Part shown: in pieces, positions 1,528-27,551 of the stretch
Numbering within the stretch: position 1 is the stretch's first letter
Layout of the letters: the number at the start of each line of letters is the position of its first letter
NCBI GenBank assembly: GCA_963422645.2
Contig: OY730417.2
Span: forward strand, 1-28,078
Direction: 5' to 3'
DNA: 28,078 bases
Source: Alphaproteobacteria bacterium
GTDB lineage: Bacteria > Pseudomonadota > Alphaproteobacteria > UBA828
Translations under genes and position numbers: made by a program
The notes under the pieces: model-generated
Databases searched by the model: none
Seen by the model: only the letters and a program-made list of their open reading frames with translations
What the model was told of the DNA's origin: nothing

Positions 1528-1710
1528 CTACTCCGCGGCTTCGGCGATGTCGTCGGCCGTGCCGAAGTGGCCGAACATGCCGGTGAAGCGCTTGCGCTCC
1601 GGCGGGCGGCAGGTCTTGCGCTTGCTGGTCTTGAGCCCGGCGAGGCCGGCCGCGAGGTCCGCCCTGGTGGCGCGCTCGCCTTGCCCGTTGCGGATCGCGG
1701 CTGCGGTCAT
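1528..1710 (-). pseudogene. Fragment of DUF1640/CCDC90-like coiled-coil protein
   Basis: AAAIRNGQGERATRADL matches ASAIRAGQGDLATRADL at 26519-26782; lacks N-terminus and TM tail. Confidence 0.5.
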
Positions 1711-2418: not shown

Positions 2419-3495
2419 ATGAGCGGGGAGACGGACGACCTGTTCGACATCAACGAGACCAAAAACCCGTCATTGCGTACCGCGCTCGCACGCATGAACG
2501 AGCAGCGGCAGGCGCATCCCGACTACGGGGCAGACGGGCAGGCGGACGTCGAGAAATCGGCCACTCCAAAGCCGAAGGAACCGGAGCCGATCACGGCGGT
2601 GAGGCCCCGACGGCGGGTGAAGGAAGTGGTGCCGAACCTCGATCGGGATGATCGGATCATCCCGGCTCGCCTCGCCATGTTCGACGGTGCGGAAGGCGAT
2701 TCGCGTGGTCGCCTGTTCTCTCCCGCGATGCATCGCATGCTTCGGGGCGACGGTCGGCAGCAACTCCTGCCGGGCTTCGAGCATGACGTGCGGACCCCGG
2801 CGCTACCGTTAGCGCTCTACGAGCTCGGCGTGAATCACACCTCGCCCGGACCGGGAGCGCCAGTGGCGCTCCGGCTGTTCGTCGAGAGCATTCTCGCTGC
2901 GCCCTACCACGAGCGTGACATGGACCAGTCCGTGACCTTCGACGTTCCCATGCGAACGCTGGTCAGGCGCTTGTGGCCGAATCGTCGGCGCAAGCGCAAC
3001 GAGTGGTTCCCTGTCATTGCATCGGCGCGCGACGTGCTGGCGAGCCGCGAGGCCGGAATCCCGTGGCCTGGCGGCGTGCGCTGGGCCGTCACGATGACCA
3101 ACCTGCCGATCGATATCGCCGATGACGTGCGCCTCGTGGTGGACCTGCCGCCCGGCGCCAAGGACGGGCCGCAAGTCTCGCCGCGCCTGCACCTCTACGG
3201 GCCGCAACGCGGCAAGCACTATCGGGCGCTCCTGAACCTCGCCTATTGGTGGCACGAACCAGGCCGGACCCTCGTGCCGGCAGATGGCGGCTCACACTGG
3301 CTCCGCGTCAAGGATCCGCGCCGCTATCGCAAGCCGAACGACGCCGAGCTCGTGAATCTCGTGTTCCCGACGGCCGCACGCAGGCAATTCCGCAACCTGC
3401 GCGGTGAGGCACTGAAGGTGCTCGCGGACCTGCGCGACGACGGCGAACTCCGCGAGCTGGACGGCAAGCCGCTCCCGCCGGTGGCGCCCGAGTAG
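2419..3495 (+). CDS. Putative plasmid replication initiator (divergent, family not recognised)
   Basis: 358-aa ORF with purine-rich RBS, immediately followed by an iteron array and AT-rich region; function inferred from context only. Confidence 0.6.
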   Translation: MSGETDDLFDINETKNPSLRTALARMNEQRQAHPDYGADGQADVEKSATPKPKEPEPITAVRPRRRVKEVVPNLDRDDRIIPARLAMFDGAEGDSRGRLFSPAMHRMLRGDGRQQLLPGFEHDVRTPALPLALYELGVNHTSPGPGAPVALRLFVESILAAPYHERDMDQSVTFDVPMRTLVRRLWPNRRRKRNEWFPVIASARDVLASREAGIPWPGGVRWAVTMTNLPIDIADDVRLVVDLPPGAKDGPQVSPRLHLYGPQRGKHYRALLNLAYWWHEPGRTLVPADGGSHWLRVKDPRRYRKPNDAELVNLVFPTAARRQFRNLRGEALKVLADLRDDGELRELDGKPLPPVAPE

Positions 3496-5218: not shown

Positions 5219-5243
5219 GAGGCGCGCCTTCGGGCAGTTGTGG

Positions 5244-5255
5244 TATACATGTATA
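5244..5255. promoter_or_regulatory. Palindromic operator of relBE
   Basis: Perfect palindrome TATACATGTATA 22 nt upstream of the antitoxin ATG. Confidence 0.65.
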
Positions 5256-5277
5256 TCAATGCCGGAAGGATCGACGC

Positions 5278-5508
5278 ATGAAACAGGCTGCCGTGCGCCT
5301 GCCCGAGGCCACCTACGACCGTTTGCAAGCTCTCGCCGCTCGGACGGGCCGCACCGCGACGTTCTACATTCGCGAGGCGATCGAGCAGCATCTCGAGGAC
5401 CTCGAAGACTTGTACGCTGCCGAGAAGGCAGCCATCGAACACCGCAAGTCCGGCGAGCGCACCATCTCGCTTGACGAGTTGGGCCATCACCTTGACCTGG
5501 AGAGTTGA
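5278..5508 (+). CDS. relB: Ribbon-helix-helix antitoxin (RelB/CopG-like)
   Basis: MKQAAVRLPEATYDRLQALAARTGRTATFYIREAIEQHLEDLEDLY...ISLDEL; overlaps the toxin start. Confidence 0.85.
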   Translation: MKQAAVRLPEATYDRLQALAARTGRTATFYIREAIEQHLEDLEDLYAAEKAAIEHRKSGERTISLDELGHHLDLES

Positions 5509-5767
5509 GATCGCGGAGAGCGCGGCCAGGCAGATCAAAAAGCCGGGACCCTCCGGTGCAGCGCGCATCCGCGACTGCTTGCGCGACCGGATCGCGCGCC
5601 TCCAGGATCCGCGCCAGCTTGGAAAGCCGCTACGTGGCTCCGAGCTCGGCGCCTTTTGGCGCTATCGTGTCGGGGACTACCGCATCCTCTGCGAGCTTCG
5701 CGACTACGAGCTGCTGGTGCTCGTGATCGAGGTCGGTCATCGCCGTTCGATCTACAACCGTCCCTGA
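5492..5767 (+). CDS. relE: RelE/StbE family toxin
   Basis: TTG start; DPRQLGKPLRG...WRYRVGDYRILCE...VLVIEVGHRRSIY signature. Confidence 0.9.
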   Translation: MTWRVEIAESAARQIKKPGPSGAARIRDCLRDRIARLQDPRQLGKPLRGSELGAFWRYRVGDYRILCELRDYELLVLVIEVGHRRSIYNRP

Positions 5768-5785: not shown

Positions 5786-6040
5786 TTGGTCGGCAAGGTG
5801 AACCAGAACGAGGACCGTGATGTCCTTGCAATGGCTGAGGCACGCCGCCGCGAGTTCCGCGGCACGGGCGGCCCACAGCGCGCGCACGACGCGCTCGTCT
5901 CGCCGACGATCCTGCGCTTGAGAGGCGAGGGGTTGAGCTGGGCGCGGGTCGCCCAGGAACTCGACGGGCTGTTCGAGCCGCCCGGCTGGCGCGGCTGCTA
6001 CCAGCCAGGCGATTGGCACGCGAGCGCCGGCTGGCGCTAG
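5786..6040 (+). CDS. Recombinase-HTH-like small protein, copy 2 (probably truncated)
   Basis: DALVSPTILRLRGEGLSWARVAQELDGLFEPPG...WHA, homologous to 4877-5218. Confidence 0.45.
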   Translation: MVGKVNQNEDRDVLAMAEARRREFRGTGGPQRAHDALVSPTILRLRGEGLSWARVAQELDGLFEPPGWRGCYQPGDWHASAGWR

Positions 6041-6588
6041 GTGGATTGCCGCTCCGATCTACCGACCAGGCTAAGGCTCATCTGCGCCGCGTCGCTCTGC
6101 GCCTTGTCCCGCTCCTTCCCGGTCAGGTGAGTGCCCACGTTCGGGTTCATGAAGTACCGCACGCCCCGGCCCTCGCGGACCCGCGACACCGCGCCGATCT
6201 CCACGAGCTCCGTCATGATCCGCGACAGGTTCCGAGGACTGATGCCCACCCGCTCCGCGAGCTCCGCCCTGGTCAACGCGATCTCGCCGGTATCGAAGCG
6301 CAGCGCAGTGAACAACTCGGCCCAGGTTGCCATCGCCGCCATCGGCCGCTTGCTGTTCTCCCGCAGCCAGGCGACCACCGCCCGGTTCTCTCTCGGTCCG
6401 ATCATGACGAACGTCCACCCCCTCTCCGATGCGGTCTGGCCGTCAACGGCCGCGATCACCTGCGTCACGGCATCCGCAGGCAGGTTCTTCACCTCCGCCA
6501 GGTCAAGGAGAAGCTGCCGCACCTCCTGCGCCTGGCCGGCCTCGAACCGCTCACGCTTCGAGCGGAACTTGTGCAACGCCGCTGCCAT
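6037..6588 (-). CDS. RepL-like / winged-HTH plasmid replication-maintenance protein
   Basis: GWTFVMIGP...DTGEIALTRAELAERVGISPRNLSRIMTELVEIGAV...YFMNPNVGTH resembles small-plasmid RepL/Crp-HTH proteins. Confidence 0.65.
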   Translation of the reverse strand: MAAALHKFRSKRERFEAGQAQEVRQLLLDLAEVKNLPADAVTQVIAAVDGQTASERGWTFVMIGPRENRAVVAWLRENSKRPMAAMATWAELFTALRFDTGEIALTRAELAERVGISPRNLSRIMTELVEIGAVSRVREGRGVRYFMNPNVGTHLTGKERDKAQSDAAQMSLSLVGRSERQST

Positions 6589-7034: not shown

Positions 7035-7281
7035 CTATGCCGTCGTGAGTTCGAGGCGCCTCTCAATCCGGCCGAGCCGGGTGCCGTGACCGTCGAGGCG
7101 TTGGTGGATGATCGCAATACCGCCCTGCATGTTGGCGAGATGACGGTCGATCGTTGCCAGGTGATGCTCGATGGAGGACACGCGGTCGCTGGAGCTCGCC
7201 AAGGCCGTGGGTGAGATCGTCGAGCTGTGCGCGGATCGCACGCAGGTGCTCTGGCACCAGGTTCTCAGTTTCCGGCGGCAT
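7035..7281 (-). pseudogene. Small coiled-coil hypothetical protein, copy 2 (frameshifted)
   Basis: MPPETENLVPEHLRAIRAQLDDLTHGLGEL / DRVSSIEHHLA...RLGRIERRLELTTA split over two frames near 7190. Confidence 0.65.
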
Positions 7282-7345
7282 GACCGCAGCAGCCTACAGG
7301 ATGCGCTCGACGTGTCATCGAGGGCTGAACAGGTTTCCTGAGCCG

Positions 7346-7625
7346 CCAGGCGAAGCCGAGGAACAGCGCCAAGGCTCGGTTGATGGCGACCAGGGCGTCG
7401 TTGTCGAGGCGGCCGAGGCGCGACCCCAGCTTGTCCCGCTTCACCGTCATCGCCTTGTCCACCATGACCTGGGACCGCTCACGGAGACCGTTCCTCGCGG
7501 AAGGCTCCACGGTCAGGCGGATCAGCGGAGCCTCCACCAGCGTGCTCGACACGAGCAGCACCGTGACCGTCGCCGTGGTGTCGAACTGATCGGACTGGAT
7601 GACCAGCGCGGGCCGCGCCTTGCGT
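7346..7625 (-). pseudogene. PemK/MazF toxin lacking its N-terminus and normal stop
   Basis: KARPALVIQSDQF...NGLRERSQVMVDKAMTVKRDKLG...ALALFLGFA; no start region; TGG where a stop is expected. Confidence 0.8.
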
Positions 7626-7797
7626 CGTCCACTCGTCGGCATCCGCCAGGGCGGTGTCCATGAACTCGAGCAGATCCGGATCGGCCAGGTCGGCTTTTGC
7701 TGCGACCTGGCCCTGGCGGCGGCATTCTTCCGCGAAGCCCGGCTTCCCGAAGCGCCAGGCGGTGCTTCCGAACTCGCCGGTTCACCGATGCTGGCAT
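7622..7797 (-). pseudogene. MazE-like (DUF3018) antitoxin with internal deletion
   Basis: MPASVNRRVRKHRLALREAGLR joins out of frame to PGFAEECRRQ...FMDTALAD; the family PxQIWVPD segment is absent. Confidence 0.75.
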
Positions 7798-10919: not shown

Positions 10920-10978
10920 GGAGCCCTCCGGAACGTGCCCCTCCTCGGCCCCGGTGGCGGGCGGGGAGGGGCGCCTTC

Positions 10979-11019
10979 AAGACCCGCCGCTTCCCCTCGG
11001 TCGCGGCGGGTCTTTCTTT
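10979..11019 (+). terminator. Rho-independent terminator between lipoprotein and Slam gene
   Basis: AAGACCCGCCGC ... GCGGCGGGTCTT stem followed by TCTTT. Confidence 0.7.
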
Positions 11020-11083
11020 GCCGGACCGCAACCCCGCAGCTGTCAGCGTCGGGGTCCGGGCGCTTCTTTCGGGATGGGCATTG

Positions 11084-12559: not shown

Positions 12560-12592
12560 CCCCACCCGCCCCGGCACTCGACCCGAGAGAGG

Positions 12593-12835
12593 CTACCGGG
12601 TGCGACGACCAGGGTGCCCGCCGTCCGCCCTGCGGTAAAAGACTGCCGCGGCGACGGCGCGCCCGCCCGGCCAGGGCGCGTATCGCGGGCATCCCGATCC
12701 GTCGTCCCCGGCCGGAACCATGCAGTCATCCTCCCCGAGCCGGATGGCGCCCGGCGGCGGCTCCCGGGCCGCGGTTTCCGCGCAGCCGCAGAGCGCGATC
12801 GCCAGGGCCGCCGCCGCGCAGCCGTCGAGCCGCAT
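12593..12835 (-). CDS. Small putative lipoprotein
   Basis: MRLDGCAAAALAIALCG-C lipobox; begins 13 nt after the subtilase stop; C-terminus may be frameshifted. Confidence 0.55.
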   Translation of the reverse strand: MRLDGCAAAALAIALCGCAETAAREPPPGAIRLGEDDCMVPAGDDGSGCPRYAPWPGGRAVAAAVFYRRADGGHPGRRTR

Positions 12836-12848
12836 CGATCCCGGCGCT

Positions 12849-15248
12849 TCAGAAGGCCAGGCGTATTTTCGCCGCCGCGCCGAACTCCGGCGCGGCCGAG
12901 TCGTCGTGGCCGGGCCCGATGCGCGCATAGCCGCCGACCGCGGCCGATACGCCATCGCCGCCTTGCATCTCGTACACCGCCTGCAGCCGGATCTCCCGCC
13001 CGCGAGGCGCCAGATCGATGACGCGCGGCGTGTAGCGGACGACCCCGTCGGCCACCTCGCGGTCGGGAATGCCGATGCGGACCGCCGCGCCGCGCGCCCG
13101 GAACGGCGACGACGCGGTCAGCGTGAGCCGGTCCGACGCCAGCCAGAGCCGCTCCGCCTCGGCCCCGACCGCGAACGACCCGGCGCGCGCACTGCCCCAT
13201 TGAGAAACCAGGGACGCCCGCTCCGGTGCGCCGCCGGAAGCGACGCCGCGGCCGAGGCTTCCGAACAGCGTCACACCGCCCGATACGCGGCCCTCGACGC
13301 CGAGGTCGAGAAAGCGCGTCGCGGCGTCCGCCGCGCCCGCGAAAGCCCCCCCGGCCCGGATACCCATCAGCGATCCGCTCTCGCGCAACGCGCCGACGCG
13401 CGCGCCGAGGACGATGCGGCCGCCGAACCGGCGGACGATCCCGAGCGAGGCCAGCCGCGTTCTCGCCGACCCGGAGTAGCCCTCTCCGCGCTTGCCCGCG
13501 ACGTCGATTTGCGTGTCCCCGTCGACCCGCCAGTCGAGGCTCAGTCCGGTGCCGCGCCCGGCGAGCGCCGCGAACGCCGCCGCCGCCCATGCGTCCCGGA
13601 ACACGGCGCGGCGCACCCGCGCGGCGGCGAAACCGTTCGACGACCCGAGCGCATGGACCCCCGGCCCGACGGCGACCGCCAGGTCCGGAGCCGGAGCGAA
13701 ACGCAGGCGCCAGTCGCGCACCGTCCCGCGGTCCCGGTCCGCCGCCGGCCGGCGCGGGTCGAACGCATCGTCCCCGTGCGCGAATTGAAGCGCCGCCTGC
13801 CGCCCCAGGGGCACGATCCGGGACGGTTCGCCGGGCACCGACAGGAAGGCGCGCAACGCCCCTTCCGAGGCGCGTCGCCCGGCCGGCCGGAAGAGCGCGG
13901 CCAGATCGTGGCGGAAGGGGAACATCTGCTCGTCGTACACGACGGCGCCGGCCAGGGCGGCGGCGCCCGAAGGCGCCCCGAAGCCCGGCGGCAGATCGAC
14001 GAAACTGTCCGCCAGCGGAACCATGCCCGCCGCGCCCGCGGGCAGGCTCAGGGACCCGACCGGGCTCAGCGCGGCCCCGAGGTCGAGCGCCCCGTGCCCG
14101 AACGTGTCGGAGATCTCCCGCCCGTCCAGCGGGCGGGCCGTCGCCAGCAGGCGCTCCACGATCCCCGCGCCGCCCTTGTTCGGAAACGCGGCCCACACCA
14201 CCGCGGCCGCGCCGGACACGTGCGGGGCGGCGAAGGACGTGCCGTCGACCCGGCCATACCCGCCGCCCGCCCGCGTAGTCGCAACGCGCTCGCCCGGCGC
14301 GAACAGGCAGTACTCCCTGACCGGGCCGCAGGTGTTGCTGTGGGCGGCCCTTCCCGCGCCGCTCTCGTCGAGTGATCCGACCGCGATCGCGAAGCCCGCG
14401 ATCCCCGGGTCCGCCACATGGGCGGCCGGCGCCCCCAGGGGCCCCCGGCCGTCGTTCGAGGCGCACTCGTCCCCGCCGTCGCCGCAATTGCCCAGGACGG
14501 CGACCATGACCCGGCCCGCCCCGGCCGCGTCCCGCATCGCGCCGGCGATCCGGGGAACGTCGTGAAAACCGGGATAGGCGAAGCTCATGTTGACGATGTG
14601 GGAGCTGGCCGCAGGGTCGGACGACACGCCCCCGTAAGTCCGCGCCAGACCCGCCGCGGACGCGATGGAGGCCGCGACGGCGTCGACCGAACCCGCGTCC
14701 GCGAAGTCCCCCGCGCACCCGCCGCCGATCCCGCAGGTCGCGATGCTCCGCAGGTTCGCGTTCCAGGCAACGCCGTGCACGCCGGAGCCGTCGCGACGCG
14801 CCGCGACGATGCCCGCAACGGGCGTCCCGTGCTCGCGAGACAACAGGGCGCTCCGAAACGCGGTCTCCCCGTCGAACCGGCCGGGCACCAGATCGGAATG
14901 CGAGAAGTCGACCCCGTCGTCCAGCACCGCCACCGTGATGCCCCCGCCGCCGGGCCGGCCCGCGTCGCGGCGCGCGTACCCCCCGCTCGCGTCGATCAGG
15001 GCGAGTCCGGTGGAGCGCCTGTACTCGGCGGTCTCCCACGAGACGCGTCCGCCGGGACGCCGGGGCTCCGCCAGCCCGCCTCCGTGCGAGCGAACCCCGC
15101 TCTCCGGCGACACGGGCGATACAACCGGCGGAGGGCCACTCGGCGGCGGCACGGGCGGAGAACCGCCGCCACCGCCGCAGCCGGACAGGACCGCCGCCAG
15201 CAAGCCCGCAGCCGCCAGCGAAGACAGCCTCTCGATCCGGACAAACAT
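12849..15248 (-). CDS. Lipidated S8 subtilisin-like serine protease with C-terminal beta-barrel (autotransporter-like)
   Basis: Lipobox VLSG-C then Gly/Pro linker; triad VAVLDDG, EHGTPVAG, GTSFAAPHVSG; FGHGALDL; beta-rich C-terminal half ending IRLAF; start chosen at ATG 15248. Confidence 0.85.
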   Translation of the reverse strand: MFVRIERLSSLAAAGLLAAVLSGCGGGGGSPPVPPPSGPPPVVSPVSPESGVRSHGGGLAEPRRPGGRVSWETAEYRRSTGLALIDASGGYARRDAGRPGGGGITVAVLDDGVDFSHSDLVPGRFDGETAFRSALLSREHGTPVAGIVAARRDGSGVHGVAWNANLRSIATCGIGGGCAGDFADAGSVDAVAASIASAAGLARTYGGVSSDPAASSHIVNMSFAYPGFHDVPRIAGAMRDAAGAGRVMVAVLGNCGDGGDECASNDGRGPLGAPAAHVADPGIAGFAIAVGSLDESGAGRAAHSNTCGPVREYCLFAPGERVATTRAGGGYGRVDGTSFAAPHVSGAAAVVWAAFPNKGGAGIVERLLATARPLDGREISDTFGHGALDLGAALSPVGSLSLPAGAAGMVPLADSFVDLPPGFGAPSGAAALAGAVVYDEQMFPFRHDLAALFRPAGRRASEGALRAFLSVPGEPSRIVPLGRQAALQFAHGDDAFDPRRPAADRDRGTVRDWRLRFAPAPDLAVAVGPGVHALGSSNGFAAARVRRAVFRDAWAAAAFAALAGRGTGLSLDWRVDGDTQIDVAGKRGEGYSGSARTRLASLGIVRRFGGRIVLGARVGALRESGSLMGIRAGGAFAGAADAATRFLDLGVEGRVSGGVTLFGSLGRGVASGGAPERASLVSQWGSARAGSFAVGAEAERLWLASDRLTLTASSPFRARGAAVRIGIPDREVADGVVRYTPRVIDLAPRGREIRLQAVYEMQGGDGVSAAVGGYARIGPGHDDSAAPEFGAAAKIRLAF

Positions 15249-15402
15249 CCGGCCTCCGTCGCCCCGTTCCCGCGGGAAGGCTGCGCGAAGGGAGCCCCCG
15301 GAACAAGCTCCATGATCAGGCCTCCGCGAGCACGCGATCTGTCCAGTGCAGACACAAGCTCGACCGGGGGCGCCGACGTGTCCTTGTCGGTCGGCTGCAA
15401 GA

Positions 15403-16674
15403 TCAGGGGATGTTGCACGGAGCGCCGGGTCGACCGGCGTGCTGTTTTTCCTGTGCCGTATCCCGAATCGCGGTCGCATAGACAGCGAGGTCCGATGCGC
15501 GCATCCGGAGACTTCGCGCGATGTCCTTCCAGCCACCCAGTGCAGTCGCGACCTCATCGATGATGGCAGCGGCCCGGCTGGCGTTCAGCGCGAAGTATGG
15601 TGCAGCGCTGCGGGCAAGATCCAGATCGGCGCCCGGTCCTTCTTCCGATATCCAGGTGGTCAGTTCCCGCGCCTTTTCGGTCAGCGGCACCGGGTTCAGG
15701 TCATAGGCCGGCGAAAGGCGCCATTTGTTATCGTGATCGTACAGGAAGCCATGGTTGCGGAGGTGATCGTCGAGATTGCCGACCATCACATTGAAGACGA
15801 TCCGCCTCCACAGCTCATGCAGGTCTTCGGTGGGCGCGCTCGAATACATTCTGATGACTTCTGCGATATCCGTGTAGGTCGCTTCGTCGCCGTCGCTGAG
15901 CCCGAGTAGTGTCATGGCGGAAATGAACGGGATTCTTCCGCCTTCGTCGCGGTCGAACCGCGTGATCAGGGACACCGGCCGACCGGCCACGTCCAGCAGT
16001 GTTGCCTGAGCAACATCGATGCCTGCGCCGGCGGCGAGTGTCATCGCCAGCACTTCGCCATGCGGAATGCTGCGATCGTCGTCGTTCTTTGGAAACTTGG
16101 CGATCGCCAGGCGACCGTCATTGTCGATGACGGCGGATTTGGGGCGGGCGCCGCCGAGGGGCGAGCCTTCGTTCAGCAGAAGTCTCAAGTCCTCGGCGGT
16201 TTCGGTGTTGGACAGTACCGCATCGGCGGCGTCGAGGAGCGCCGGCAGCCGGATCAGGGGAGGAACGCGGTAGCGGCCGATGTTGTGGTCGAAGGTCTCC
16301 TCGCCTTCCCGGCGGTACCGGAGCGCGCCTATTCTCGTCCGGTCGTTGATGGCGAGGAGACAGTCGATCTCGGACAGGGCGCGTTGCTCGCCGGCTTTGC
16401 GAAAGGCGCGCCGTATCAGCTGTTGGCCCCAGCAGTCGGGTGCGGTGTCACGCAGCGCACCTGGCGATGCGGACTTGTTGGAGGAGGTGTATATCTGCCG
16501 GCGTTCCAGCGGCAGGTTCGCCGGATCCAGGGCGAAAGCACCGGCGCGGTCGTGCCACGCGTCGGCGTACTCGAACACCGAGCCTTGGCCGTGTCGCCTG
16601 GCAATATAGTGGCATCGGCCGACGAGGCGTGTCGGACCATTATGGTCGACAAAGACCTCGATGGTGTCGGTCAT
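15403..16674 (-). CDS. hipA: HipA family Ser/Thr kinase toxin
   Basis: GSPLGGARPK, IAKFP, RFDR, GNLDDHLRNHGF, LSPAYDLNP motifs. Confidence 0.9.
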   Translation of the reverse strand: MTDTIEVFVDHNGPTRLVGRCHYIARRHGQGSVFEYADAWHDRAGAFALDPANLPLERRQIYTSSNKSASPGALRDTAPDCWGQQLIRRAFRKAGEQRALSEIDCLLAINDRTRIGALRYRREGEETFDHNIGRYRVPPLIRLPALLDAADAVLSNTETAEDLRLLLNEGSPLGGARPKSAVIDNDGRLAIAKFPKNDDDRSIPHGEVLAMTLAAGAGIDVAQATLLDVAGRPVSLITRFDRDEGGRIPFISAMTLLGLSDGDEATYTDIAEVIRMYSSAPTEDLHELWRRIVFNVMVGNLDDHLRNHGFLYDHDNKWRLSPAYDLNPVPLTEKARELTTWISEEGPGADLDLARSAAPYFALNASRAAAIIDEVATALGGWKDIARSLRMRASDLAVYATAIRDTAQEKQHAGRPGAPCNIP

Positions 16675-17006
16675 GACTGTGGCCGGGCGCGGCGGCGCGG
16701 CTGCACCTTCCTGGGCAGTCGATCCTCGTCGATGTCCAGTCCGAGGGAATCGTCTCGCCGGTCGACCGCCTGGACAAGGCGGTCGGCGAGCCCCAGGATG
16801 GCCAATACGGTTGCGTAGATGCCGATCGAGACCGACGGGTCGCCTCGTTCGACTTTGTAGAGGGTGCCGCGGCTGATGAATGCGCGCTCAGCCATCGAAA
16901 CTGTCGAGATGCGACGCTTCTTGCGGGCGACCGCGATGTCCGCGCCGAGCTTGGCGAGGGCCTGTTTGGCTGCTCTGGGAAGGGCATGTGTCGCCAGCGT
17001 TTTCAT
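16671..17006 (-). CDS. XRE-family HTH antitoxin (HipB-like)
   Basis: LGADIAVARKKRRIS...AERAFISRGTLYKVERGDPSVSIG; ATGA overlap with hipA. Confidence 0.85.
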   Translation of the reverse strand: MKTLATHALPRAAKQALAKLGADIAVARKKRRISTVSMAERAFISRGTLYKVERGDPSVSIGIYATVLAILGLADRLVQAVDRRDDSLGLDIDEDRLPRKVQPRRRARPQS

Positions 17007-17671
17007 CGTATGTCCTATAAAGAACGCAATAGAGGCATATATTGTTCATTACACAAGACATTAGAGGTGGATCAACAGATTTCGGATCTTGACCGCAGCC
17101 GGATGAGCAAGACCATCCCTCGGGTGCGCCGCATATCGCTGCGTGCGTCCCGTCGGTTGGCCCAGGTGGAGGGGCGGGGTGGAAGATCGGGGAAGGTGAC
17201 ATGCAGATTTGCGAGGCTGCGCTTCAAGAACGTACGGCGAGACCCTGGTAGCGAGCGCAGCCGTGTCGCCACCCGACGAGAAGCAGCGCCAGCTGTGGTG
17301 AGACGGTAATCACCTGGGGCAGTCTGGGCCGCCGGCGCACACTGAATGGGGAGACCCAGGCGGAGCTGATCGCCTGCGCGATCGAGAGCGCAATGCGCGA
17401 GGCGTTGCGCGCCCTCATCGTCGACTCTCGCGGGAAGGTGCGCCCGAACGAGCGCACGAAGCTGTTGTGGCTCTCGGCGGCGTGTCTCGTGGACCCGCGC
17501 GGAAGCCGGCAAGCGCTTGTGGAGGCGGCGGACGATCCTGACTTTCCCGGCCATGTCCGGGAGGCGACAGGGCGCATGAACCGCTACGCCGATGCGCCGC
17601 TCGAGGTCGTGTCCCCGGGCGTGGTGTAGGAGGGAGGCTCCTGTAGACGGACAGAAGTCTCTGTGAATCGG

Positions 17672-18714: not shown

Positions 18715-19137
18715 CGGGCCGGCCCCGCGTCGCCATCCGGCCAAGTACAAGCCGACGAGCAAGGAGGAGTTCATATCCCCGAGGATGCGGGAGTATTTCC
18801 GGCGCAAGCTGGAAATGTGGCGGCAGGACATCCTCGACGAAACCGATGCGACCCTCGAGAAGCTCAGGCTCGATACCAGCCAGAAGCTCGACCTGGGGGA
18901 CTGCGCCGCCGTCGAATCCGAGCGATTGGTTCAGCTTCGCACCCGAGACCGCGCGCGCAAGCTGATCTCGAAGATCGAGGCGGCGTTGCAGCGGATCGAA
19001 GACGGCTCCTATGGCTATTGCGAGGAGACCGCCGAGCCCATCAGCATCCGCCGTCTGGAAGCCCGCTCATCGCGACGCTCAGTGTCGAGGCGCAGGAGCG
19101 CCACGAGCGCCACGAATGCACCCACCGCGACGGTTGA
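18711..19137 (+). pseudogene. dksA: DksA homolog (alphaproteobacterial type) with two apparent -1 frameshifts
   Basis: YKPTSKEEFISPRMREYFRRKL...LRTRDRARKLISKIEAALQRIEDGSYGYCEET.EPI...IATLSVEAQERHER across three frames, shifts near 18738 and 19065. Confidence 0.85.
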
Positions 19138-19207
19138 TCTCTGCTTTAAGCCGGTCGTTGACGCGGGGTGGGGAAGAGAGAATACGCCCTGAGTGGCAAC
19201 ACGATCC

Positions 19208-19972
19208 TTACCTTGTGCCACTCGCCTCCCTATGGCCCAGTGTGCGGTCGCCGATCAGACGCGCCAACTCGAACCGCCGGCCTGTTTTCCACCCGGACCT
19301 AAGCGATATCCGCGTGTGGCCGTGTTGCTGGCGGAGCGCGAAGGAGATGCCGTCGGAGCGCCTGTGGATCTCCGTGATTGCACGACTTGTCGTCCCCGCG
19401 AAATCTGCGAGGCGCTGATCGGAAACCGGCTGTCCGTCGAGGGAATTCCTGTCGCGAAGCGCCCGCGCCATACATTTCCCCACGCGCCACGCATCAGCAC
19501 TTTCAAACTGCGGTACGGTTTCCTCTTCGGGCAATGCGATCACATCGCCTACATCGGCATCGAAACCGCTCCGCCCCGCGGTTTCCATGATGTCGGACGC
19601 AGACATCATGCAGTCGAAGGCATGGCCGCAAAGCGCGGCGTCGGCCGCCACCTCTCCGAGCGCCTCTTCCCCGAGAGCCGCCGCATCGCCGAGGCGGGAG
19701 CGTATCGTGTCTTCATCGACTTCATCCGGATCGCAGCCGAGCTGCGCTTCCAGCCGACGGAAACGCGCGACCTCCGGGTTCTCCCGTTCCGTCATCAGGT
19801 CGTTCCACAGGCGATGGAGGTTTGTCGTGCGGAGGCCATCTTCATCAAGTCTTGCCAGGACATCCTCCAGGAATCCGTCGACGACGTCTTCCAACGCCGT
19901 TGCAGGAATTGTCTGACGTCCCCTGGCCCACTGCTCGCCCCGCAAGCCCCGTAGCGGTGCCCCGCACCTCAC
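19208..19972 (-). pseudogene. Internal fragment of a hypothetical protein, possibly ImmA/IrrE-like
   Basis: Protein-like ORF (RFRRLEAQLGCDPDE...TGRRFELARLIGD) with no good start or end. Confidence 0.35.
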
Positions 19973-20015
19973 TCAAAGCCGGAATCAACCCGCTTCATCC
20001 CAAGATTTGCCCCTC

Positions 20016-20546
20016 TTACAAGTCAGCGTCCAGCGGCGGAGGCGGTAGGGGGCAAGCCGGCCATACGCACAAAAAAACGCGGTATGATAAACGTTTGGCC
20101 AAAAGCCAGTTTTCCCCTAGGTCTTCGACGGATATTTCTCCAAGTGCTGACCCCTCCTGCTCCGCTCGCGCATGAAATTGTTTGAACCACTCCCGCAAAT
20201 GTGTCTGAGCGACAGTGTCGTTGGGATACGCCAACTCTGCAAAATTCGGCGGAGTGCCTTCCAAGAACTCAATGACGTCCTGCTCTTCGAGTTCTTGCCA
20301 TATATGCGAGCCGATTACAAAAAAGTGTGCTGTATTATCAGCCTCCCCCTCAACCAAGGAATCCCACAGACGAGAAAACTGTCTTAAATCGTTCACAGAC
20401 GCTATTTCCGAGACAAGTTGCCGCCCGGCGTTGCGTTGCGTGCCGTTTTCTCCATTCTCTGCCACTGAATCCGTTGCAGCAAGTATCGAGAGCATCGTTG
20501 CAAAAATCAAAAACGCATTTTTGGGTTTACCGCAAAAAGACATCAT
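20016..20546 (-). CDS. Hypothetical exported protein (low-GC island)
   Basis: Hydrophobic N-terminal signal-like segment; GGAGG RBS; ATGA overlap with upstream gene; C-terminal CVWPAC-polyPro. Confidence 0.6.
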   Translation of the reverse strand: MMSFCGKPKNAFLIFATMLSILAATDSVAENGENGTQRNAGRQLVSEIASVNDLRQFSRLWDSLVEGEADNTAHFFVIGSHIWQELEEQDVIEFLEGTPPNFAELAYPNDTVAQTHLREWFKQFHARAEQEGSALGEISVEDLGENWLLAKRLSYRVFLCVWPACPLPPPPLDADL

Positions 20547-21061
20547 GTTGCCTCCCCTTGATCCTTTCGTTGCCAGAGACTAAATGAAAGAAAACCAGCT
20601 GTGGTTAGTATTGCCAGACTGCTGGCAGCAATTTGAACCAAACTAACACACCGAAGACTCGCATAGTAGTCGTTGCGGAAATGTTGCCTAGCGTCGACAA
20701 TGTAGCACTCCAATGATCCATTCCACCCGGTCGAAATTTCAGAAAAGAAGCCTGTTCTATATGCTATAACTAGAAAACTACACGCTACGGCTAATACAAA
20801 TAATGACAATGGAATAAACAATAAATTCACTCCCTTAACCAGGGTTTCATCGCGACTCAGCTTCGCTTCCCTAGCCCGGAACAAAATTGACAGAATAAAA
20901 CCAATGCTGGCTGCCGAGATTCCGGTAGCGACATCAGCTTGCATTTGTATTCCGTCGACGAACTGCAGTACCGTATCGGGGATGTCGGGATATGAGTACG
21001 CATCCGACGTGCTCTCTACGCCATTTTCTGTGCACATCTCGTAATTGATATCAACTTGCAT
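20543..21061 (-). CDS. Hypothetical membrane protein, ~3 TM helices (low-GC island)
   Basis: Three hydrophobic stretches; GGAG RBS; visibly AT-richer than the flanks. Confidence 0.65.
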   Translation of the reverse strand: MQVDINYEMCTENGVESTSDAYSYPDIPDTVLQFVDGIQMQADVATGISAASIGFILSILFRAREAKLSRDETLVKGVNLLFIPLSLFVLAVACSFLVIAYRTGFFSEISTGWNGSLECYIVDARQHFRNDYYASLRCVSLVQIAASSLAILTTAGFLSFSLWQRKDQGEAT

Positions 21062-21155
21062 ATTTTCTCCGCGTTGTTCGGCCGAGAAGCACTGAGGTGG
21101 CCTCGCCTATTCGGACAGCCTGGCGGCTTGGTTCAAGGTGTATTCCGGTTGAAGT

Positions 21156-22099
21156 TCAGGCTGCCAATATCCCCTTGAATCGATCTTCCTGTTGCTGCTG
21201 TTGCGCCTGTGGGTATGTGGGCAAGGCGCGGAGCGGCTTGTCCATCATATCATATCCACAGGCAGGCCGTCCCGGCAGGCCTCGGCCGGCGTCCGCCCGC
21301 CCAGCGCCGAGTGCGGCCTGATGGTGTTGCAGAAGCCGATCCACTCGCCGATGACGCGCCGGGCGGTGAAGCCGTCGGCGATCTCGTGCAGGTAGACCGC
21401 CTCGTATTTCATCGAGCGCCAGAGCCGCTCGATGAAGATGTTGTCCATGCACCGGCCCCGCCCGTCCATCGAGATGCGGATGCCGAGCCGCCTGCAGGCG
21501 GCCGGTGAAGGCGAAGCTGGTGAACTGGCTGCACTGGTCGGTGTTGAAGATCTCCGGCGCGCCATGCCGATCCAGGGCCTCCTCAAGCGCGTCTGTACAG
21601 AAGCCGGCATCCAGCGTGTTCGACAGCTGCCAGGCCAGGATGTGGCGGCTCGCCCAGTCCATGATCGCCACCAGGCAGAGGAAGCCGCGCTGCACCGGGA
21701 TACAGGTGATGTCGGCGCACCAGACGTGGTCCGGCCGCTCGATCCGCAGACCCTTGAGCAGACAGGGCCAGACCCCCGGTGCTCGGGGTGCGGAGCGCTG
21801 GTGCGCTGCGCCCGCCAGACCGCCTGAAGACCCAGAAGGCGCATCAGCCGAGCGGCCCGGCGGCGCCCGATGCATACCCCCTCGCGGCGAAGATGGCGAA
21901 CCATCTGGCGGGCGCCGTAGAACAGACCCTTCAGGAACAGCTCGTCGATCCGACGCATCAGCGCCAGCGTCTCGGCGCTCTCGCCCTTCGGCTCGTAGTA
22001 GAGCGAGGAGCGCCCGATCGACAGCAGCCGGCATTGCCGGCTCAGGCTCAGCGCCGGATGATCGCGCTCCACCATCGCCCGACGCTCGGCCCGGCTCAT
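21156..22099 (-). pseudogene. IS3 transposase OrfB (DDE), frameshifted
   Basis: Conserved blocks alternate between two frames, shifts near 21775 and 21495. Confidence 0.85.
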
Positions 22100-22386
22100 C
22101 GACCGGACCCGCGAGACAAAAAATCCCGCTCCACGATCAGCTCCCCGATCTTGGCGTGAAGATCGCGCACTTCGCCCTCATGATCCCGGACCCGGCGTTC
22201 CGCGCCCTTCGAGAACAGCTCGGCCAGACCCTCGATCGCCTGGCGCTTCCACGCACCCACCTGGTTCGGATGAACCTGGTGCCGAGAGGCGATCTCCTGA
22301 AGCGTCCGATCACCCCGAAGCGCCTCAAGCACGATCTTCGACTTCTGCTCTCCCGAAAATCTCCGCCGCTGGCTGCTCATATGCAT
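22096..22386 (-). CDS. IS3 transposase OrfA
   Basis: RRRFSGEQKSKIVLEAL...HPNQVGAWK...KIGELIVERDFL. Confidence 0.85.
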   Translation of the reverse strand: MHMSSQRRRFSGEQKSKIVLEALRGDRTLQEIASRHQVHPNQVGAWKRQAIEGLAELFSKGAERRVRDHEGEVRDLHAKIGELIVERDFLSRGSGR

Positions 22387-22450
22387 CCCTCCGTCCCTCA
22401 GTGGAATACACCTTGGCGACCCGTCCGATTTCCCGGGGCCACCGGCAACG

Positions 22451-22970
22451 TCACGATTTATGTGTCATGGGGAATGGGGTAGCGGTTCCCTGACATTTGT
22501 TTTGGTGGCTGAAGACGGCGAAGAGGATTCGGTTCATTGAGGTTTGGTCCTGGAAGGTTCCCATGGGCCGGGTCCTTCGCCGGACCTCTCGGAAGCGTCG
22601 TTCGATGGCGTTGGTGGTCCTGACCTGCTTTCGCTCGGCGAGGCTTGAGTAGCGGAAGCATGTGAGCAGGTCGTCGAGGTCGTTGCGCAGGCAGGCGACG
22701 GCCTTGGGGTAGGTCTCCTCCCAGGCATCGGCGAAGCGTCGGGCGGCGCTGAGCGCCTTGGGCCGGTTGGGGGCGTTCATGACGGCGTGGAGGCTGGCCT
22801 TCACGGCATCGCGGTGGGGTTTGCGGACCTTGTCGAGGATGTTTCTGATCTTGTGCGCCCAGCAGCGCTGGAGCGGGATGCTGGGGTAGACCGTCGGCAG
22901 TGCTGCAATCAGGCCTTGGCCGCCGTCGGCGCAGATCACCTCGAGACCCTCTCCGGCGAGCCCCCTGCGC
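22451..22970 (-). pseudogene. IS256-family transposase, C-terminal half
   Basis: ADGGQGL, QRCWAHKIRN, RTTNAIERRFREVRRRTR; truncated at repeat X. Confidence 0.85.
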
Positions 22971-23286
22971 CAGTGCCAGGTGACCGGGGCGGGGTAGCGG
23001 TGCCAGCCGCGCGCCGTCCGCACTCTGGCACAGGTTGCGGGGTTTCAAATCTGAAACGTCTTCGGTAGGGTCGCCGGCGTTTCGGGTCTGAAACGAGAGG
23101 CCGCGTCATGCCGAGGAACCGCCCCGAGCACTTCCACGTCTGGCGAAAGGCGAAAGGCGACAGGATTTTCTACGTTCTGCGGCGGCCCTTCAACACCAGC
23201 CAAGCCGCCGGCCAATGGGCGAAGCGGCGCGAACCGGACAAGGCCCGGTTCATGGTTTTGCGATGCACGGAAGAGCGCTGCGCCCC
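22971..23286 (+). repeat. Dispersed repeat X, copy 2 (contains ORF 23108-23323)
   Basis: 316-bp direct copy of 18386-18701. Confidence 0.9.
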
Positions 23287-23293
23287 GGATTTG

Positions 23294-23352
23294 ATCGCCG
23301 GGCCTCCTCTTCCCATAGCCTAAGGGTGGACCAATTCCATGGGCGAGGATCA
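23294..23352 (-). mobile_element. Isolated IS3-family left end
   Basis: AGGGTGGACCAATTCCATGGG.GAGGATCA shared with the IS end at ~26044-26073. Confidence 0.7.
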
Positions 23353-23367
23353 GTATTGGCAACCGTT

Positions 23368-23405
23368 CCCGAATGTCCGATAATTACAGTTATCGGACAT
23401 TCGGG
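23368..23405. promoter_or_regulatory. lox-like recombination site: 16-bp perfect arms with 6-bp asymmetric core
   Basis: CCCGAATGTCCGATAA-TTACAG-TTATCGGACATTCGGG, ending 6 nt before the recombinase ATG. Confidence 0.75.
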
Positions 23406-23411
23406 CCAGCC

Positions 23412-24350
23412 ATGACAGACGCCGCCGACCGCAAGATCGCCGCCGCCCCGCCCGTTCGAGAGCTCGCGCCCGCCGTGCAGGCCAGACTCGAAGCTGCATG
23501 GGCCGCCTCGAAGTCGCCCGCCACGCGCCGGGCCTACCGCACCGCATGGGCCACGTGGACGGCATGGGCCGATGCGCACGGGGGCACGTCCCTTCCCGCC
23601 GCCCCGCAAGCCGTCGCAGCCTACCTCGCGGCCCGCGCCGAAGCCGGCGCCGGCATGGCAACCCTGCGCATGGCAACGGCCGCAATCGGGGCCGCGCACG
23701 AGCTCGCCGGCGAAACCTCGCCGTGCGCGAACCGGCTTGTGAAAACTGCGATGCAGGGTTTCGCCCGGCAAGCCGCCGAAGCCGGCGCAACCGTCCGCCA
23801 GGCGCGCGGGCTGACCGCCGAAGCCGTGGCCGCGATCCGGGGCGCGCTCAGCGGCCGGGCCGATACCAGCCGGCGCGCCGCCCGCGACATGGCGCTTGTC
23901 TCCGTCATCGCCGATGCCGGCTTGCGCCGCTCGGAAGCCGCCGCGCTGGCATGGGCCGATATCGAGGTCGAGGCCGACGGCTCCGGGCGCGTCACTGTCC
24001 GGCGCTCGAAGACCGATCAGGAAGGCACAGGCGCGGTCGTGGCGATCACGCCGGCGGCAATGGCCGATCTCGACCGCCTGGCGGCTCTGCGCGGCGGCCG
24101 CGATCCGGATTTGCCGGTCTTCCGGCTGTCGGACAGGCAGATCGCGCGCCGCATCGCCGCCATGGCGATGCTGGCCGGCCTGGGCGACGGCTTCAGCGGG
24201 CATTCCGGGCGCGTCGGCATGGCGCAACGCATGACGCGCAACGGCGCGCCCGCACCCGCCGTCATGCGGCAAGGGCGGTGGAGCACAACCGGCATGGTCG
24301 CCCGTTACACCCGCAACGAGGGCGCCGGCGAGGCGCTGCGATACCTCTAG
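23412..24350 (+). CDS. Cre-like tyrosine recombinase
   Basis: SAM-like N-terminus (SPATRRAYRTAWATW); catalytic R (GLRRSE), K (RRSKTDQ), HxxR (GHSGRVG), W (QGRW), Y (MVARY). Confidence 0.9.
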   Translation: MTDAADRKIAAAPPVRELAPAVQARLEAAWAASKSPATRRAYRTAWATWTAWADAHGGTSLPAAPQAVAAYLAARAEAGAGMATLRMATAAIGAAHELAGETSPCANRLVKTAMQGFARQAAEAGATVRQARGLTAEAVAAIRGALSGRADTSRRAARDMALVSVIADAGLRRSEAAALAWADIEVEADGSGRVTVRRSKTDQEGTGAVVAITPAAMADLDRLAALRGGRDPDLPVFRLSDRQIARRIAAMAMLAGLGDGFSGHSGRVGMAQRMTRNGAPAPAVMRQGRWSTTGMVARYTRNEGAGEALRYL

Positions 24351-24359
24351 TCCACGGGA

Positions 24360-24528
24360 GACCGGCGTCGAGACCCGCCAGGCCGAAGCCATTGCCGCCG
24401 CGATCCGCGACGGACAGGGCGAGCTTGCCACAAAGGCGGACCTCGCCGGCATCGAAACCCGCATGGTCAAGTTCGGCTTCGGCCTCGCCGTCGGGATCGT
24501 CGCCATGAACACGGCCTTGATCGTCGGC
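24360..24528 (+). pseudogene. DUF1640/CCDC90-like fragment
   Basis: GVETRQAEAIAAAIRDGQGELATKADLAGIETRMVKFGFGLAVGIVA; no start. Confidence 0.6.
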
Positions 24529-24583
24529 TTCCGCATGCTCAACGTCCTGGACGAGTTCACCCGCGAGAGCCTGGCCATCCGGG
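24529..24583 (+). pseudogene. Tiny IS3 integrase-core fragment
   Basis: FRMLNVLDEFTRESLAIR is a characteristic IS3 OrfB block. Confidence 0.6.
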
Positions 24584-24635
24584 ATGCTCATGGCGTTGCC
24601 GCGGATACACCGAAATCCCCGCCGCCGGTCAAAGG

Positions 24636-25070
24636 TCAGGCGGCTTCTTCCACGGTCACCACCAGGCGCTTCCTGAAGCGGGCCAGGGCTTCCTCCAGCC
24701 GGCCGATCTTGGTGGCGTGGCGGGGGTCGAGCATACGGCGAACCTCGCTCTCCTGGACGCCCATGGCCGTCGCGAAAGCGCTGTTGGACAGCCGCTCTTC
24801 GCGTAGCGCCTCGTAAAGCGCCGCCTTGGCGGCCAGCACCGCGCCCGGAACCGCCGCAGGCCGGCCCCTGGCCGGGCTCGACGCCGGAATGTCCTCGCGC
24901 CGCGCCATCCGGCCCGCGAGCGCCTCCTCCAGGCAGTCCGCGGCTTCCGCCACCGCCTCGGCGAGCGTCTCGCCGTCCGTGAAGGCTTCGTCGAAGTCCG
25001 GGAAGGTGACCGAATACCCGCCTTCGCGTTCCTCGTGGAGGTCGATGGGGTAGCTGTACCGCATTGCCAT
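24636..25070 (-). CDS. hicB: HicB antitoxin
   Basis: GGYSVTFPDFDEAFTDGETLAEAVAEAADCL...C-terminal HTH (EVRRMLDPRHATKI); own GGGAG RBS. Confidence 0.9.
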   Translation of the reverse strand: MAMRYSYPIDLHEEREGGYSVTFPDFDEAFTDGETLAEAVAEAADCLEEALAGRMARREDIPASSPARGRPAAVPGAVLAAKAALYEALREERLSNSAFATAMGVQESEVRRMLDPRHATKIGRLEEALARFRKRLVVTVEEAA

Positions 25071-25082
25071 GATCGCAACTCC

Positions 25083-25295
25083 CTGGAGGTCGTTCGGGTC
25101 GATGCCGAGCTGCTTGCACATGCCGCGCAGCGTGCCGGTCTTGAGCGACTTCCTGCGGTCCTTCACCACGGTATGGCGGTCACCGCAATAGAGGGTGCCG
25201 TGGCTGCCCTTGCCCCTCGTCCGGTCGAACCTGACCGCGACCCCGTTCCTGCGCGCCAGCTTCCTAACCCTCGTAATGAATTCACGCCCGTTCAC
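25083..25295 (-). CDS. hicA: HicA toxin; stop codon lost so it reads in frame into hicB
   Basis: GTG start; RGKGSHGTLY...KTGTLRGMCKQLGIDPNDL then CAG at 25083-25085 where a stop is expected. Confidence 0.85.
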
Positions 25296-25670: not shown

Positions 25671-26073
25671 GCCCGGCGCTCCGGGATCCCGAGCCGGTCA
25701 CGGACATGATCGATGCACTGGCGGCGGTGCGAGGGGCTCGGAAGTTTCCCCGGGCGGCCTCCTTGAGGATCTGCTTGTCCAGCGTCAGGTCAGAAACCGC
25801 ACGGCGCAGCCGCTCGTTCTCCTGCTCAAGCTCCTTCAAACGGCGGAGCTGATCGCCGCTCATCCCGGCATACTCCTTGCGCCACCTGTAGAAGGTAACC
25901 TCGCCGATCCCGAGCTGCCGGATCGCGTCCGCCATCGACATGCCCTGGCCATGCAGGACTTCTGCCTGCCGCAGCAGGATCACGATCTCCTCCGGCTTGT
26001 AACGCTTCCTCGCCATCGTCGGTCCTCCTCTTTCCGTAACCTGAGGGTGGACCAATTCCATGGGGGAGGATCA
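25671..26073 (-). mobile_element. IS3-family (IS407-like) left end, OrfA from ATG 26016, truncated early in OrfB
   Basis: MARKRYKPEEIV..LRQAEVL...TFYRWRKEYAGM...LDKQILKEAARGNF; IR TGATCCTCCCCC. Confidence 0.85.
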
Positions 26074-26306
26074 ATCGCGTCTTGAAGTTGACGGCAGGCT
26101 ATGGCGGCTGTGCGGCTGGAGCGGTGCCGGCCGGCTTCTGGCCAAGGAGAGGCTATTGCGGCCTGCCCGGCCACGACCACCAGCCCAAGCTCGTCGGTGT
26201 CCTCATCGGTCACAACGGGTGGCCTGTCAATGCCTGTATGCGGCTCCAGGTTGCCGTAAAAATGCCATACCTGTATCATGTGAGCGTCAATCATGGAGGC
26301 GGAATC

Positions 26307-26785: not shown

Positions 26786-27551
26786 ATGACGGCCCGGCCC
26801 GCGCGCTCGGTGGACGAATGGCGCGCGGCGTGGCCGTACCTGCGGCGGATCGGCCATGAATGGCACGGCCTTTGTCCGCTGTGCGGAGGCGCGGATCGGT
26901 TCTGGGTCTTGCGCGGGCGCGACCGTCCGGCGGTGGCCGGCTGCCGCCAGTGCGACGGCGGGCCGGAGTGGGTCGGCGAGGCCGAGCGGAAGGTCTTCGG
27001 GGATGCTGAGCGGCGAGGCCCGCCGCGATCCGCTCGCCGACGCCCGCCGGATCGCCGTCCGGCCGCCAGCGCCGCGAGACCCGAAGCCCCCGCAACCTCG
27101 GACCCGGCCGCGATCTGGCGCGAGGCTGTCCGGGCGGACGGAACGCCGGCCCTGGCCGCCCGACGGGATCGGCCCGGACCTGCCGGCGTCCGTGCACTGG
27201 CACGCGGGGCGATCGTGCATCCTGTTCGCCTTCCGGCGAGGCGCCGCCCTCGTGGCCGTCTCGATGGAGCGCCTGAATTCCGACGGGACGCGCCCCGACC
27301 CCCGCTGGCGGCGCACCTTCGGCCCGCGCTCCGGCGCGCTGTTCGAAGCGGCCCCCGGCGATGGACCCGCCCCTGATCTCGTGCTGGCGGAAGGCGAGGT
27401 CGATACGCTCGCCTGCCGTTGGCTGCATCGAGGCGCGCGCTGCCTCGCGGCGGGCGGAACCGCCGGCCCGGCGGCGCGGCCCTGCGTGGTCATCGAGGCC
27501 GACGGCGACCTGGCCGGCGAGCGCGCCGCCGCGACAAGGCAGGCTATCTGA
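26786..27551 (+). pseudogene. Primase: P4-alpha-type zinc finger plus Toprim domain, frameshifted
   Basis: EWHGLCPLCGGADRF...GCRQC in one frame; LVLAEGEVDTL...AAGGT...IEADGDLAG in another, switch near 27150. Confidence 0.75.

Follow-up and report, generated by a model that had tools for sequence, protein, structure and literature searches.

Introduction

Fungal repeat-induced point mutation (RIP) converts C to T in a dinucleotide-specific manner and targets repeats. Here we describe a real but modest excess of A:T>G:C changes at the dinucleotide TpA on contig C1 of an alphaproteobacterial genome (G000; GenBank assembly GCA_963422645.2, contig OY730417.2), the whole 28,078 bp of which forms the window under study. 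The densest signature lies in a lone, decayed copy of an IS3-family insertion sequence (IS), and further events fall in toxin-antitoxin modules. The pattern is like RIP in comprising dinucleotide-specific transitions in mobile DNA, and unlike it in that the change is A>G, repeated elements on the chromosome have been spared and the affected IS3 copy is a lone one.

The known case that it most closely resembles, by analogy, is found in the alga Bigelowiella natans, whose integrated viral DNA undergoes TpA hypermutation. There, 230 of 231 de novo mutations were A:T>G:C at TpA, arising at a roughly 1000-fold rate, and adenine deamination was proposed with the enzyme unproven (bioRxiv 10.64898/2026.01.13.699255). 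In both systems A:T>G:C changes at TpA are enriched and confined to foreign or mobile DNA (rate ratios here of 8.4 on the plasmid, 0.73 in core genes and 1.18 in chromosomal repeats). Unlike the algal case as described there, our enrichment is only about 8-fold, many other changes are present, the carrier is a bacterial plasmid, there is a lean to one strand, TpA is not depleted, the host's other mobile DNA is unaffected, and the near-exclusive A:T>G:C/TpA spectrum is lacking (7 of 47 private changes in the IS3 copy and 3 of 19 in hipBA).

Two bacterial systems also invite comparison. A-to-I editing of mRNA by TadA requires TACG or YTACGAA (PMC12255301). Our changes share with it the sense-strand Tyr>Cys outcome, the 5' pyrimidine-T-A context and a TadA-like gene in the host, but they are in DNA rather than RNA and none of 12 TACG sites was changed, which counts against deamination with canonical TadA specificity; TadA-like deamination was one of the examples first suggested for this contig. 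Work on the interbacterial toxins DddA and SsdA (PMC7901873) shows that deaminases can leave bacteria with context-specific mutations that are inherited, and that single-stranded DNA can be a target as well. DddA deaminates cytosine and enters the cell from outside, for which reason it should mark the chromosome too; an adenine counterpart was not found here. A literature search whose coverage lay outside subscription journals turned up no case of bacterial TpA hypermutation.

A TpA-focused excess of A:T>G:C changes

Positions conserved in at least three relatives were pooled, and A:T>G:C changes at TpA were compared with those at other A/T sites. With the IS3 copy included, 14 of 151 TpA sites had changed versus 19 of 1725 other A/T sites, a rate ratio of 8.4 (confidence interval (CI), 4.3–16.5; P = 6 × 10−8), whereas the relatives gave 47/1958 versus 386/21,048 (ratio 1.3). 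Outside IS3 the counts were 8/119 versus 16/1399 (P = 3 × 10−4; homologs, 38/1431 versus 310/15,243). The polarised dinucleotide spectrum thus bears out the TpA enrichment that the first-pass annotation of this sequence had proposed. When the sites named in that annotation were left out, 7 of 144 TpA sites were still changed (P = 0.003; under looser thresholds, 0.014 and 0.004). Of 71 homolog segments, not one gave P < 0.03, and two modules of the window reached 2 × 10−5 and 2 × 10−3.

The changes were more frequent at YTA (11/49) than at RTA (3/102; P = 3 × 10−4) and 11 of the 14 events lay on the minus strand (P = 0.03), with both TpG and CpA products occurring. They were not evenly spread, contrary to the window-wide signature first described: no TpA change was seen in the integrase (0/21), dksA (0/8), IS256 (0/10) or the Slam/S8 genes (0/12). 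The integrase, Slam, S8 and region 19200-21089 were poorly polarised or unpolarised.

Tyrosine codons of the IS3 copy

The IS3-family element (21090..22443, minus strand) is 87% identical to four chromosomal copies and 90% identical to the nearest congener copy, and its OrfB carries two frameshifts, near 21770 and 21486. Alignment to homologs shows seven OrfB Tyr codons (21276..21927, minus strand) with a middle-base A>G change, at 21927 (Y58G), 21816 (Y95W), 21763 (Y112C), 21703 (Y132C), 21676 (Y141C), 21330 (Y256C) and 21276 (Y274C). Six of the 11 near-invariant OrfB Tyr residues were lost, each in this manner, and three of the hit codons have a second change. The Cys residues first noticed in five motifs do stand where homologs encode Tyr: WPCLL (21763, TAT>TGT), DITCIP (21703, TAC>TGT), GFLCLV (21676, TAC>TGC), GFCNT (21330, TAC>TGC) and AEAC (21276), the last a position at which 2 of 10 homologs likewise encode Cys. 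On the opposite strand to OrfB, the left end of the element has a TpA>TpG change at 22415 (22415..22415, plus strand).

Against 11 homologs (84–90%), the copy has private A>G changes at 7/33 TpA sites and 4/329 A/T sites elsewhere, the figure for those homologs being 3/351 (P = 2 × 10−6). By strand, the copy was changed at 7/18 sense TpA, 1/18 antisense TpA and 3/344 other A/T sites, and 25 other IS3 copies or pieces had 4/269 sense and 3/270 antisense. A>G made up 11 of its 47 private changes, 7 of them at TpA. The four chromosomal copies retain their Tyr codons.

Two sister proteins were intermediate. The full-length P0043 has W95, C132 and C256 in common with our copy, carries W112, and still has Tyr at Y58, Y141 and Y274; P0044 retains these Tyr residues except for W274. 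Such partial sharing means that the OrfB losses accumulated stepwise, and the recurrent Tyr>Trp replacements in intact frames may be Tyr>Cys changes followed by a compensating Cys>Trp.

Events in toxin-antitoxin modules and other cargo

Comparison with homologs placed four TpA events in the hipBA module (15403..17100, minus strand), at 16361 (Y105C), 15453, 17052 and 17054, the last common to a sister copy, L135. The HipA Cys in EIDCLL (C105, 16361) was correctly called as a lost Tyr, the codon being TAT in 19, TAC in 3 and CAT in 1 of 23 homologs. This module alone gave 4/43 TpA versus 3/396 other A/T sites. On its branch since a 97.7% identical sister there were 9 A:T>G:C changes (3 at TpA) versus 5 G:C>A:T, against 0 versus 10 in the sister (P = 0.002), and 3 of its 19 private changes were A:T>G:C at TpA. 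The chromosome of a Paracoccaceae genome (L135/L188/L197) bears a copy of the hipBA region (15379-17604) at 97–98% identity, and the close relatives of HipA belong to several phyla, which together point to recent horizontal spread.

In hicA (25086..25295, minus strand) the Cys of TLYCG at 25186 is likewise a departure from Tyr (homologs TAC 5/7, TGC 1/7, GTC 1/7). The allele is old or has recurred, since this Cys also occurs in intact 70-aa HicA proteins and in the unrelated genome L212; "erosion", as first suggested, does not describe such older alleles within intact genes. The hicA stop (25083..25085, minus strand) does read CAG, changed at 25085 (homologs TAG 5/7, TGG 1/7, TGA 1/7), and the frame continues into hicB (24636-25070). 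In L212 this stop is gone as well, through TAG>TGG. The resulting 219-aa read-through fusion (24636-25295) is polymorphic in very close relatives, being fused here and in P0036/P0037 and separate in P0034/P0038.

In relBE (5238..5767, plus strand), RelE Y36C at 5577 (RDCLR, as first read) faces TAC in 3 of 3 homologs, and relB holds a weak, multi-change site at 5488. The stop of pemK (7265..7640, minus strand; N-terminal part deleted in this copy) does read TGG at 7347; it had been taken to replace TGA, and the one close homolog has TAG, which makes this a TpA event. At the pemI/pemK junction (7600-7640), about 45 bp are absent here and present in contigs of runs X1, X12 and X16 and in proteins P0048/P0050; the C-terminal read-through of pemK is common to all those copies. 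A small open reading frame (ORF; 1528..1710, minus strand) has Tyr>Cys at 1610, with TAC in every homolog shown.

Two further first-pass readings fared less well. The orfA stop of an IS407-like fragment (25671..26077, minus strand) does read CGA (25739-40), but its origin at TpA is ambiguous, homolog stops being mostly TAA or TGA. The coiled-coil CCA codon faces TTG, both in the paralog and in L073, and this difference is not a single TpA step. Sites that the annotation had not named are 21816 (Y95W), 21927 (Y58G), 22415, 15453, 17052, 17054, 1610 and 5488. Site 7622, at the pemI/pemK junction, was discarded as an alignment artefact of a deletion, and 25134, 26043, 22616, 7556 and 4504 as variable or unpolarised.

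Occurrence of the alleles in other assemblies

The alleles recur on other contigs: HipA C105 in P0008, RelE C36 in P0041, and the HicA Cys in P0032, P0034, P0036, P0037 and P0039. So do the HicA-HicB (P0036, P0037) and PemK (P0048-P0051) read-throughs, the hicA stop being intact in P0034. Most of the named changes are therefore real and inherited rather than assembly errors. The contigs that encode P0008, P0034, P0041, P0043 and P0044 measure 28.7–34.0 kb and 320.8 kb. Y58G, Y141C, Y274C and the non-coding sites were seen only once. Part of the 28,078-nt stretch was present in 16 of the 19 sequencing runs listed, and three runs, compared as contigs, represented related strains that differed by about 1%, with 759 differences recorded. 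Metagenome contigs scanned twice for exact patterns gave no matches.

Chromosomal comparisons and host repair genes

Unlike the plasmid, the chromosome had flat TpA rates. Private variants in chromosomal repeats (copies at least 94% identical; 578 private changes in 1.35 Mb of positions) gave 13/27,964 TpA versus 164/415,915 other sites, a ratio of 1.18 (CI, 0.67–2.07). In core genes totalling 38 kb, with changes polarised by means of nine congeners (the G000 branch versus a 94% sister, with eight outgroups), the counts were 3/629 versus 50/7,653 (ratio 0.73; CI, 0.23–2.33) and G:C>A:T dominated. Chromosomal homologs of the plasmid segments gave 2/92 versus 14/1202 (odds ratio (OR) 1.9, not significant). 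No TpA excess was seen across 231 diverged chromosomal segments; one outlier (C8:633241-633545; P = 4 × 10−5) reflects group II intron copies that have diverged synonymously and retain Tyr. In genome G203, five decayed IS407-like copies had 0/29 at TpA, a small sample. A decayed chromosomal IS21 (G000:C16:188541-193064) had 3/56 TpA versus 17/745, not significant alone, with an A:T>G:C lean (20 versus 17) and a Tyr>Cys change in istB.

Among host repair genes, MutS has a MutS_V match in a 915-aa open frame and the endonuclease V frame is open, which counts against the repair defect first offered as a cause (mutL was not searched for). In mismatch repair-deficient Pseudomonas fluorescens, TA contexts rank among those that mutate more slowly and the hot contexts are G/C-flanked (PMC4316635, Table 2). 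With mutS intact here and a different context, a mismatch-repair defect is an unlikely cause. The host encodes a PF00383 protein (C8:858882-859409), which we read as TadA-like from its motifs. The other four PF00383 matches look like metabolic deaminases and RibD, and no deaminase family match was found on C1.

Interpretation of the TpA excess

An excess that is confined to this contig, inherited and built up stepwise is best read as the trace of a mild A>G process that recurs at (Y)TpA on the plasmid alone and is probably the deamination of adenine in single-stranded DNA; we give this reading about even odds. The process would be restricted to this plasmid lineage and would convert A to G where A follows T, mostly at YTA and chiefly on the coding or minus strand. 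Adenine would become hypoxanthine while plasmid DNA is single-stranded, in a transcription bubble, on a displaced replication strand or during transfer, and would be copied as G before repair by endonuclease V. We infer single-strandedness, deamination and the involvement of an enzyme from the pattern. The signature would be visible only in dispensable cargo, because the TA steps of GC-rich genes are almost all Tyr or stop codons, kept by selection where they are needed. A local adenine-editing process is in this sense plausible. A more specific proposal, that a bacterial TpA-specific DNA adenine deaminase acts selectively on plasmid single-stranded DNA, in defence or as a side effect, as a prokaryotic counterpart of the algal hypermutation, we regard as doubtful. 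If true, it would point to a natural DNA adenine editor; TpA adenine editing that spares the chromosome would amount to a replicon-specific mutator with which hosts could wear down plasmid toxins and transposons.

Several observations weigh against such a process. The events total only 14–18, about half of them in one IS copy, and their strand, sense and 5' base preferences are mutually confounded with the coding strand. Outside IS3, tests requiring at least two homologs per site were null (5/114 versus 56/1349, P = 0.8) or weak (10/171 versus 65/1923, P = 0.13), and the additional homologs were gathered mainly for genes that the annotation had named. The seven unnamed sites include 17054, shared with a copy in another host, and the multi-change site 5488. 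Adjacent changes beside 5 of the 14 events are unexplained by plain deamination. No TACG site was changed, the HicA site at 25186 (TTACG, an older allele) having fallen below the conservation threshold and gone uncounted. The RepL plasmid of a congener (G008:C4) had 0/56 changed TpA sites in its IS21. TpA was also not depleted relative to the genome: the observed/expected ratio was 0.50 in the window and 0.43 in the span 21156..25295, with a genome value of 0.47 (standard deviation 0.08 at 4 kb). Only 2 of 28 1-kb windows on C1 fell below the genome's 5th percentile, and a joint CpA+TpG gain with TpA depletion was not seen.

The best-surviving alternative, a possibility we take seriously but favour less, is ordinary decay combined with ascertainment. 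Plasmid cargo would be under relaxed selection in a lineage that leans generally to A:T>G:C, TpA would show a slight excess everywhere (1.3–1.7-fold), and a conspicuous outlier would have been chosen. Tyr>Cys changes and stop read-throughs are what a reader notices, and the window is an outlier among very many. Relatives show Tyr>Cys/His at a background level, with Y23H, Y312H, Y360C and an independent Y105C present in members of the HipA cluster. Among 120 IS3 fragments, Tyr transitions were 14/934 versus 38/4199 (OR 1.7, P = 0.1); chromosomal IS singletons lean to A:T>G:C (50 in 443,879 versus 59 G>A in 904,241); and both the decayed chromosomal IS21 and the purely synonymous intron-copy pair, found among 231 segments, fit this account. 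However, the excess remains at the unnamed sites, none of the 71 homolog segments approached the two window modules, and Tyr>Cys/Trp/Gly outnumbered Tyr>His 11:1 here versus 9:9 in relatives (P = 0.02). Moreover, conservation was required of the sites in both classes, and a relaxation of selection should therefore release the two alike. If decay is nevertheless the whole explanation, the contig illustrates clearly how, in GC-rich mobile DNA, Tyr and stop codons give changes at TpA the look of something special.

Selection for inactivation is unlikely. Here the changes would have been kept for disabling toxins (HipA, RelE, HicA, PemK) and the transposase, Tyr and stop codons being effective targets; the same HicA Cys and the loss of the same stop in L212, and the two origins of HipA Y105C, are as expected. 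Yet a single change is enough to kill a gene and the IS3 copy bears seven, a promoter region (17052, 17054) and the IS end (22415) are also affected, and selection should have no preference for A>G over other disabling changes.

Very unlikely, in our judgement, is the host-wide, context-specific mutator or repair defect with RIP-like erosion of mobile DNA that was first suggested. The TadA-like protein is encoded, and the non-significant OR of 1.9 leaves room for an approximately twofold effect in old chromosomal elements. This model is unsupported, given the flat controls in repeats and core genes, the intact MutS and endonuclease V frames and the lack of TpA depletion; chromosomal repeated elements, including the four Tyr-retaining IS3 copies, are unaffected. 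A sequencing or consensus artefact is least likely of all, despite several frameshifts on the contig, as the HipA, RelE, HicA and PemK alleles and IS3 W95, C132 and C256 recur in proteins of other contigs. Reverse-transcribed edited RNA was set aside, since IS ends and a promoter are changed and TACG is untouched, as was codon reassignment, since Tyr is retained in core genes.

The replicon and neighbouring genes

The G000 genome comprises 5.9 Mb in 23 contigs (67% GC, 31% repeated). From its sequence we read C1 (1..28078, no strand) as a plasmid, given a 17-nt terminal overlap, two candidate initiators, five toxin-antitoxin modules, an integrase, IS pieces and similar-sized sister contigs (28.7–34.0 kb) encoding near-identical proteins. 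The overlap lies within a repeat, so the contig is either circular or broken in a repeat. One candidate replication protein (6037..6588, minus strand) is a RepL-like helix-turn-helix protein by Atlas clusters in which PF05732 occurs in 12–61% of members; a Pfam search of it gave no RepL match, and the Atlas assignment is a lead. The other candidate initiator (2419..3495, plus strand) has weak Rep3/RepC/TrfA leads from Atlas and retains 7 of 7 Tyr residues in 9 cluster members. The congener plasmid G008:C4 (L095; 7,169 bp) has a RepL-like gene, a coiled-coil ORF and flanking DNA in common with C1, and bears an IS21 nested in an IS256.

Elsewhere on the contig, 18737-19141 is a frameshifted dksA copy, 93% identical to the chromosomal gene on C13. 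Two low-GC (44–52%) ORFs without a Pfam match lie beside the IS3 copy (20016-21061), and a frameshifted zinc-ribbon primase-like gene occupies 26786-27551 (weak Zn_Ribbon_Prim match, E = 0.015). At 8250-15557, a repeat-rich, lipoprotein-like ORF of 889 aa adjoins genes for a Slam-family outer-membrane protein and an S8 protease, and its repeat region differs between strains in the sequencing runs.

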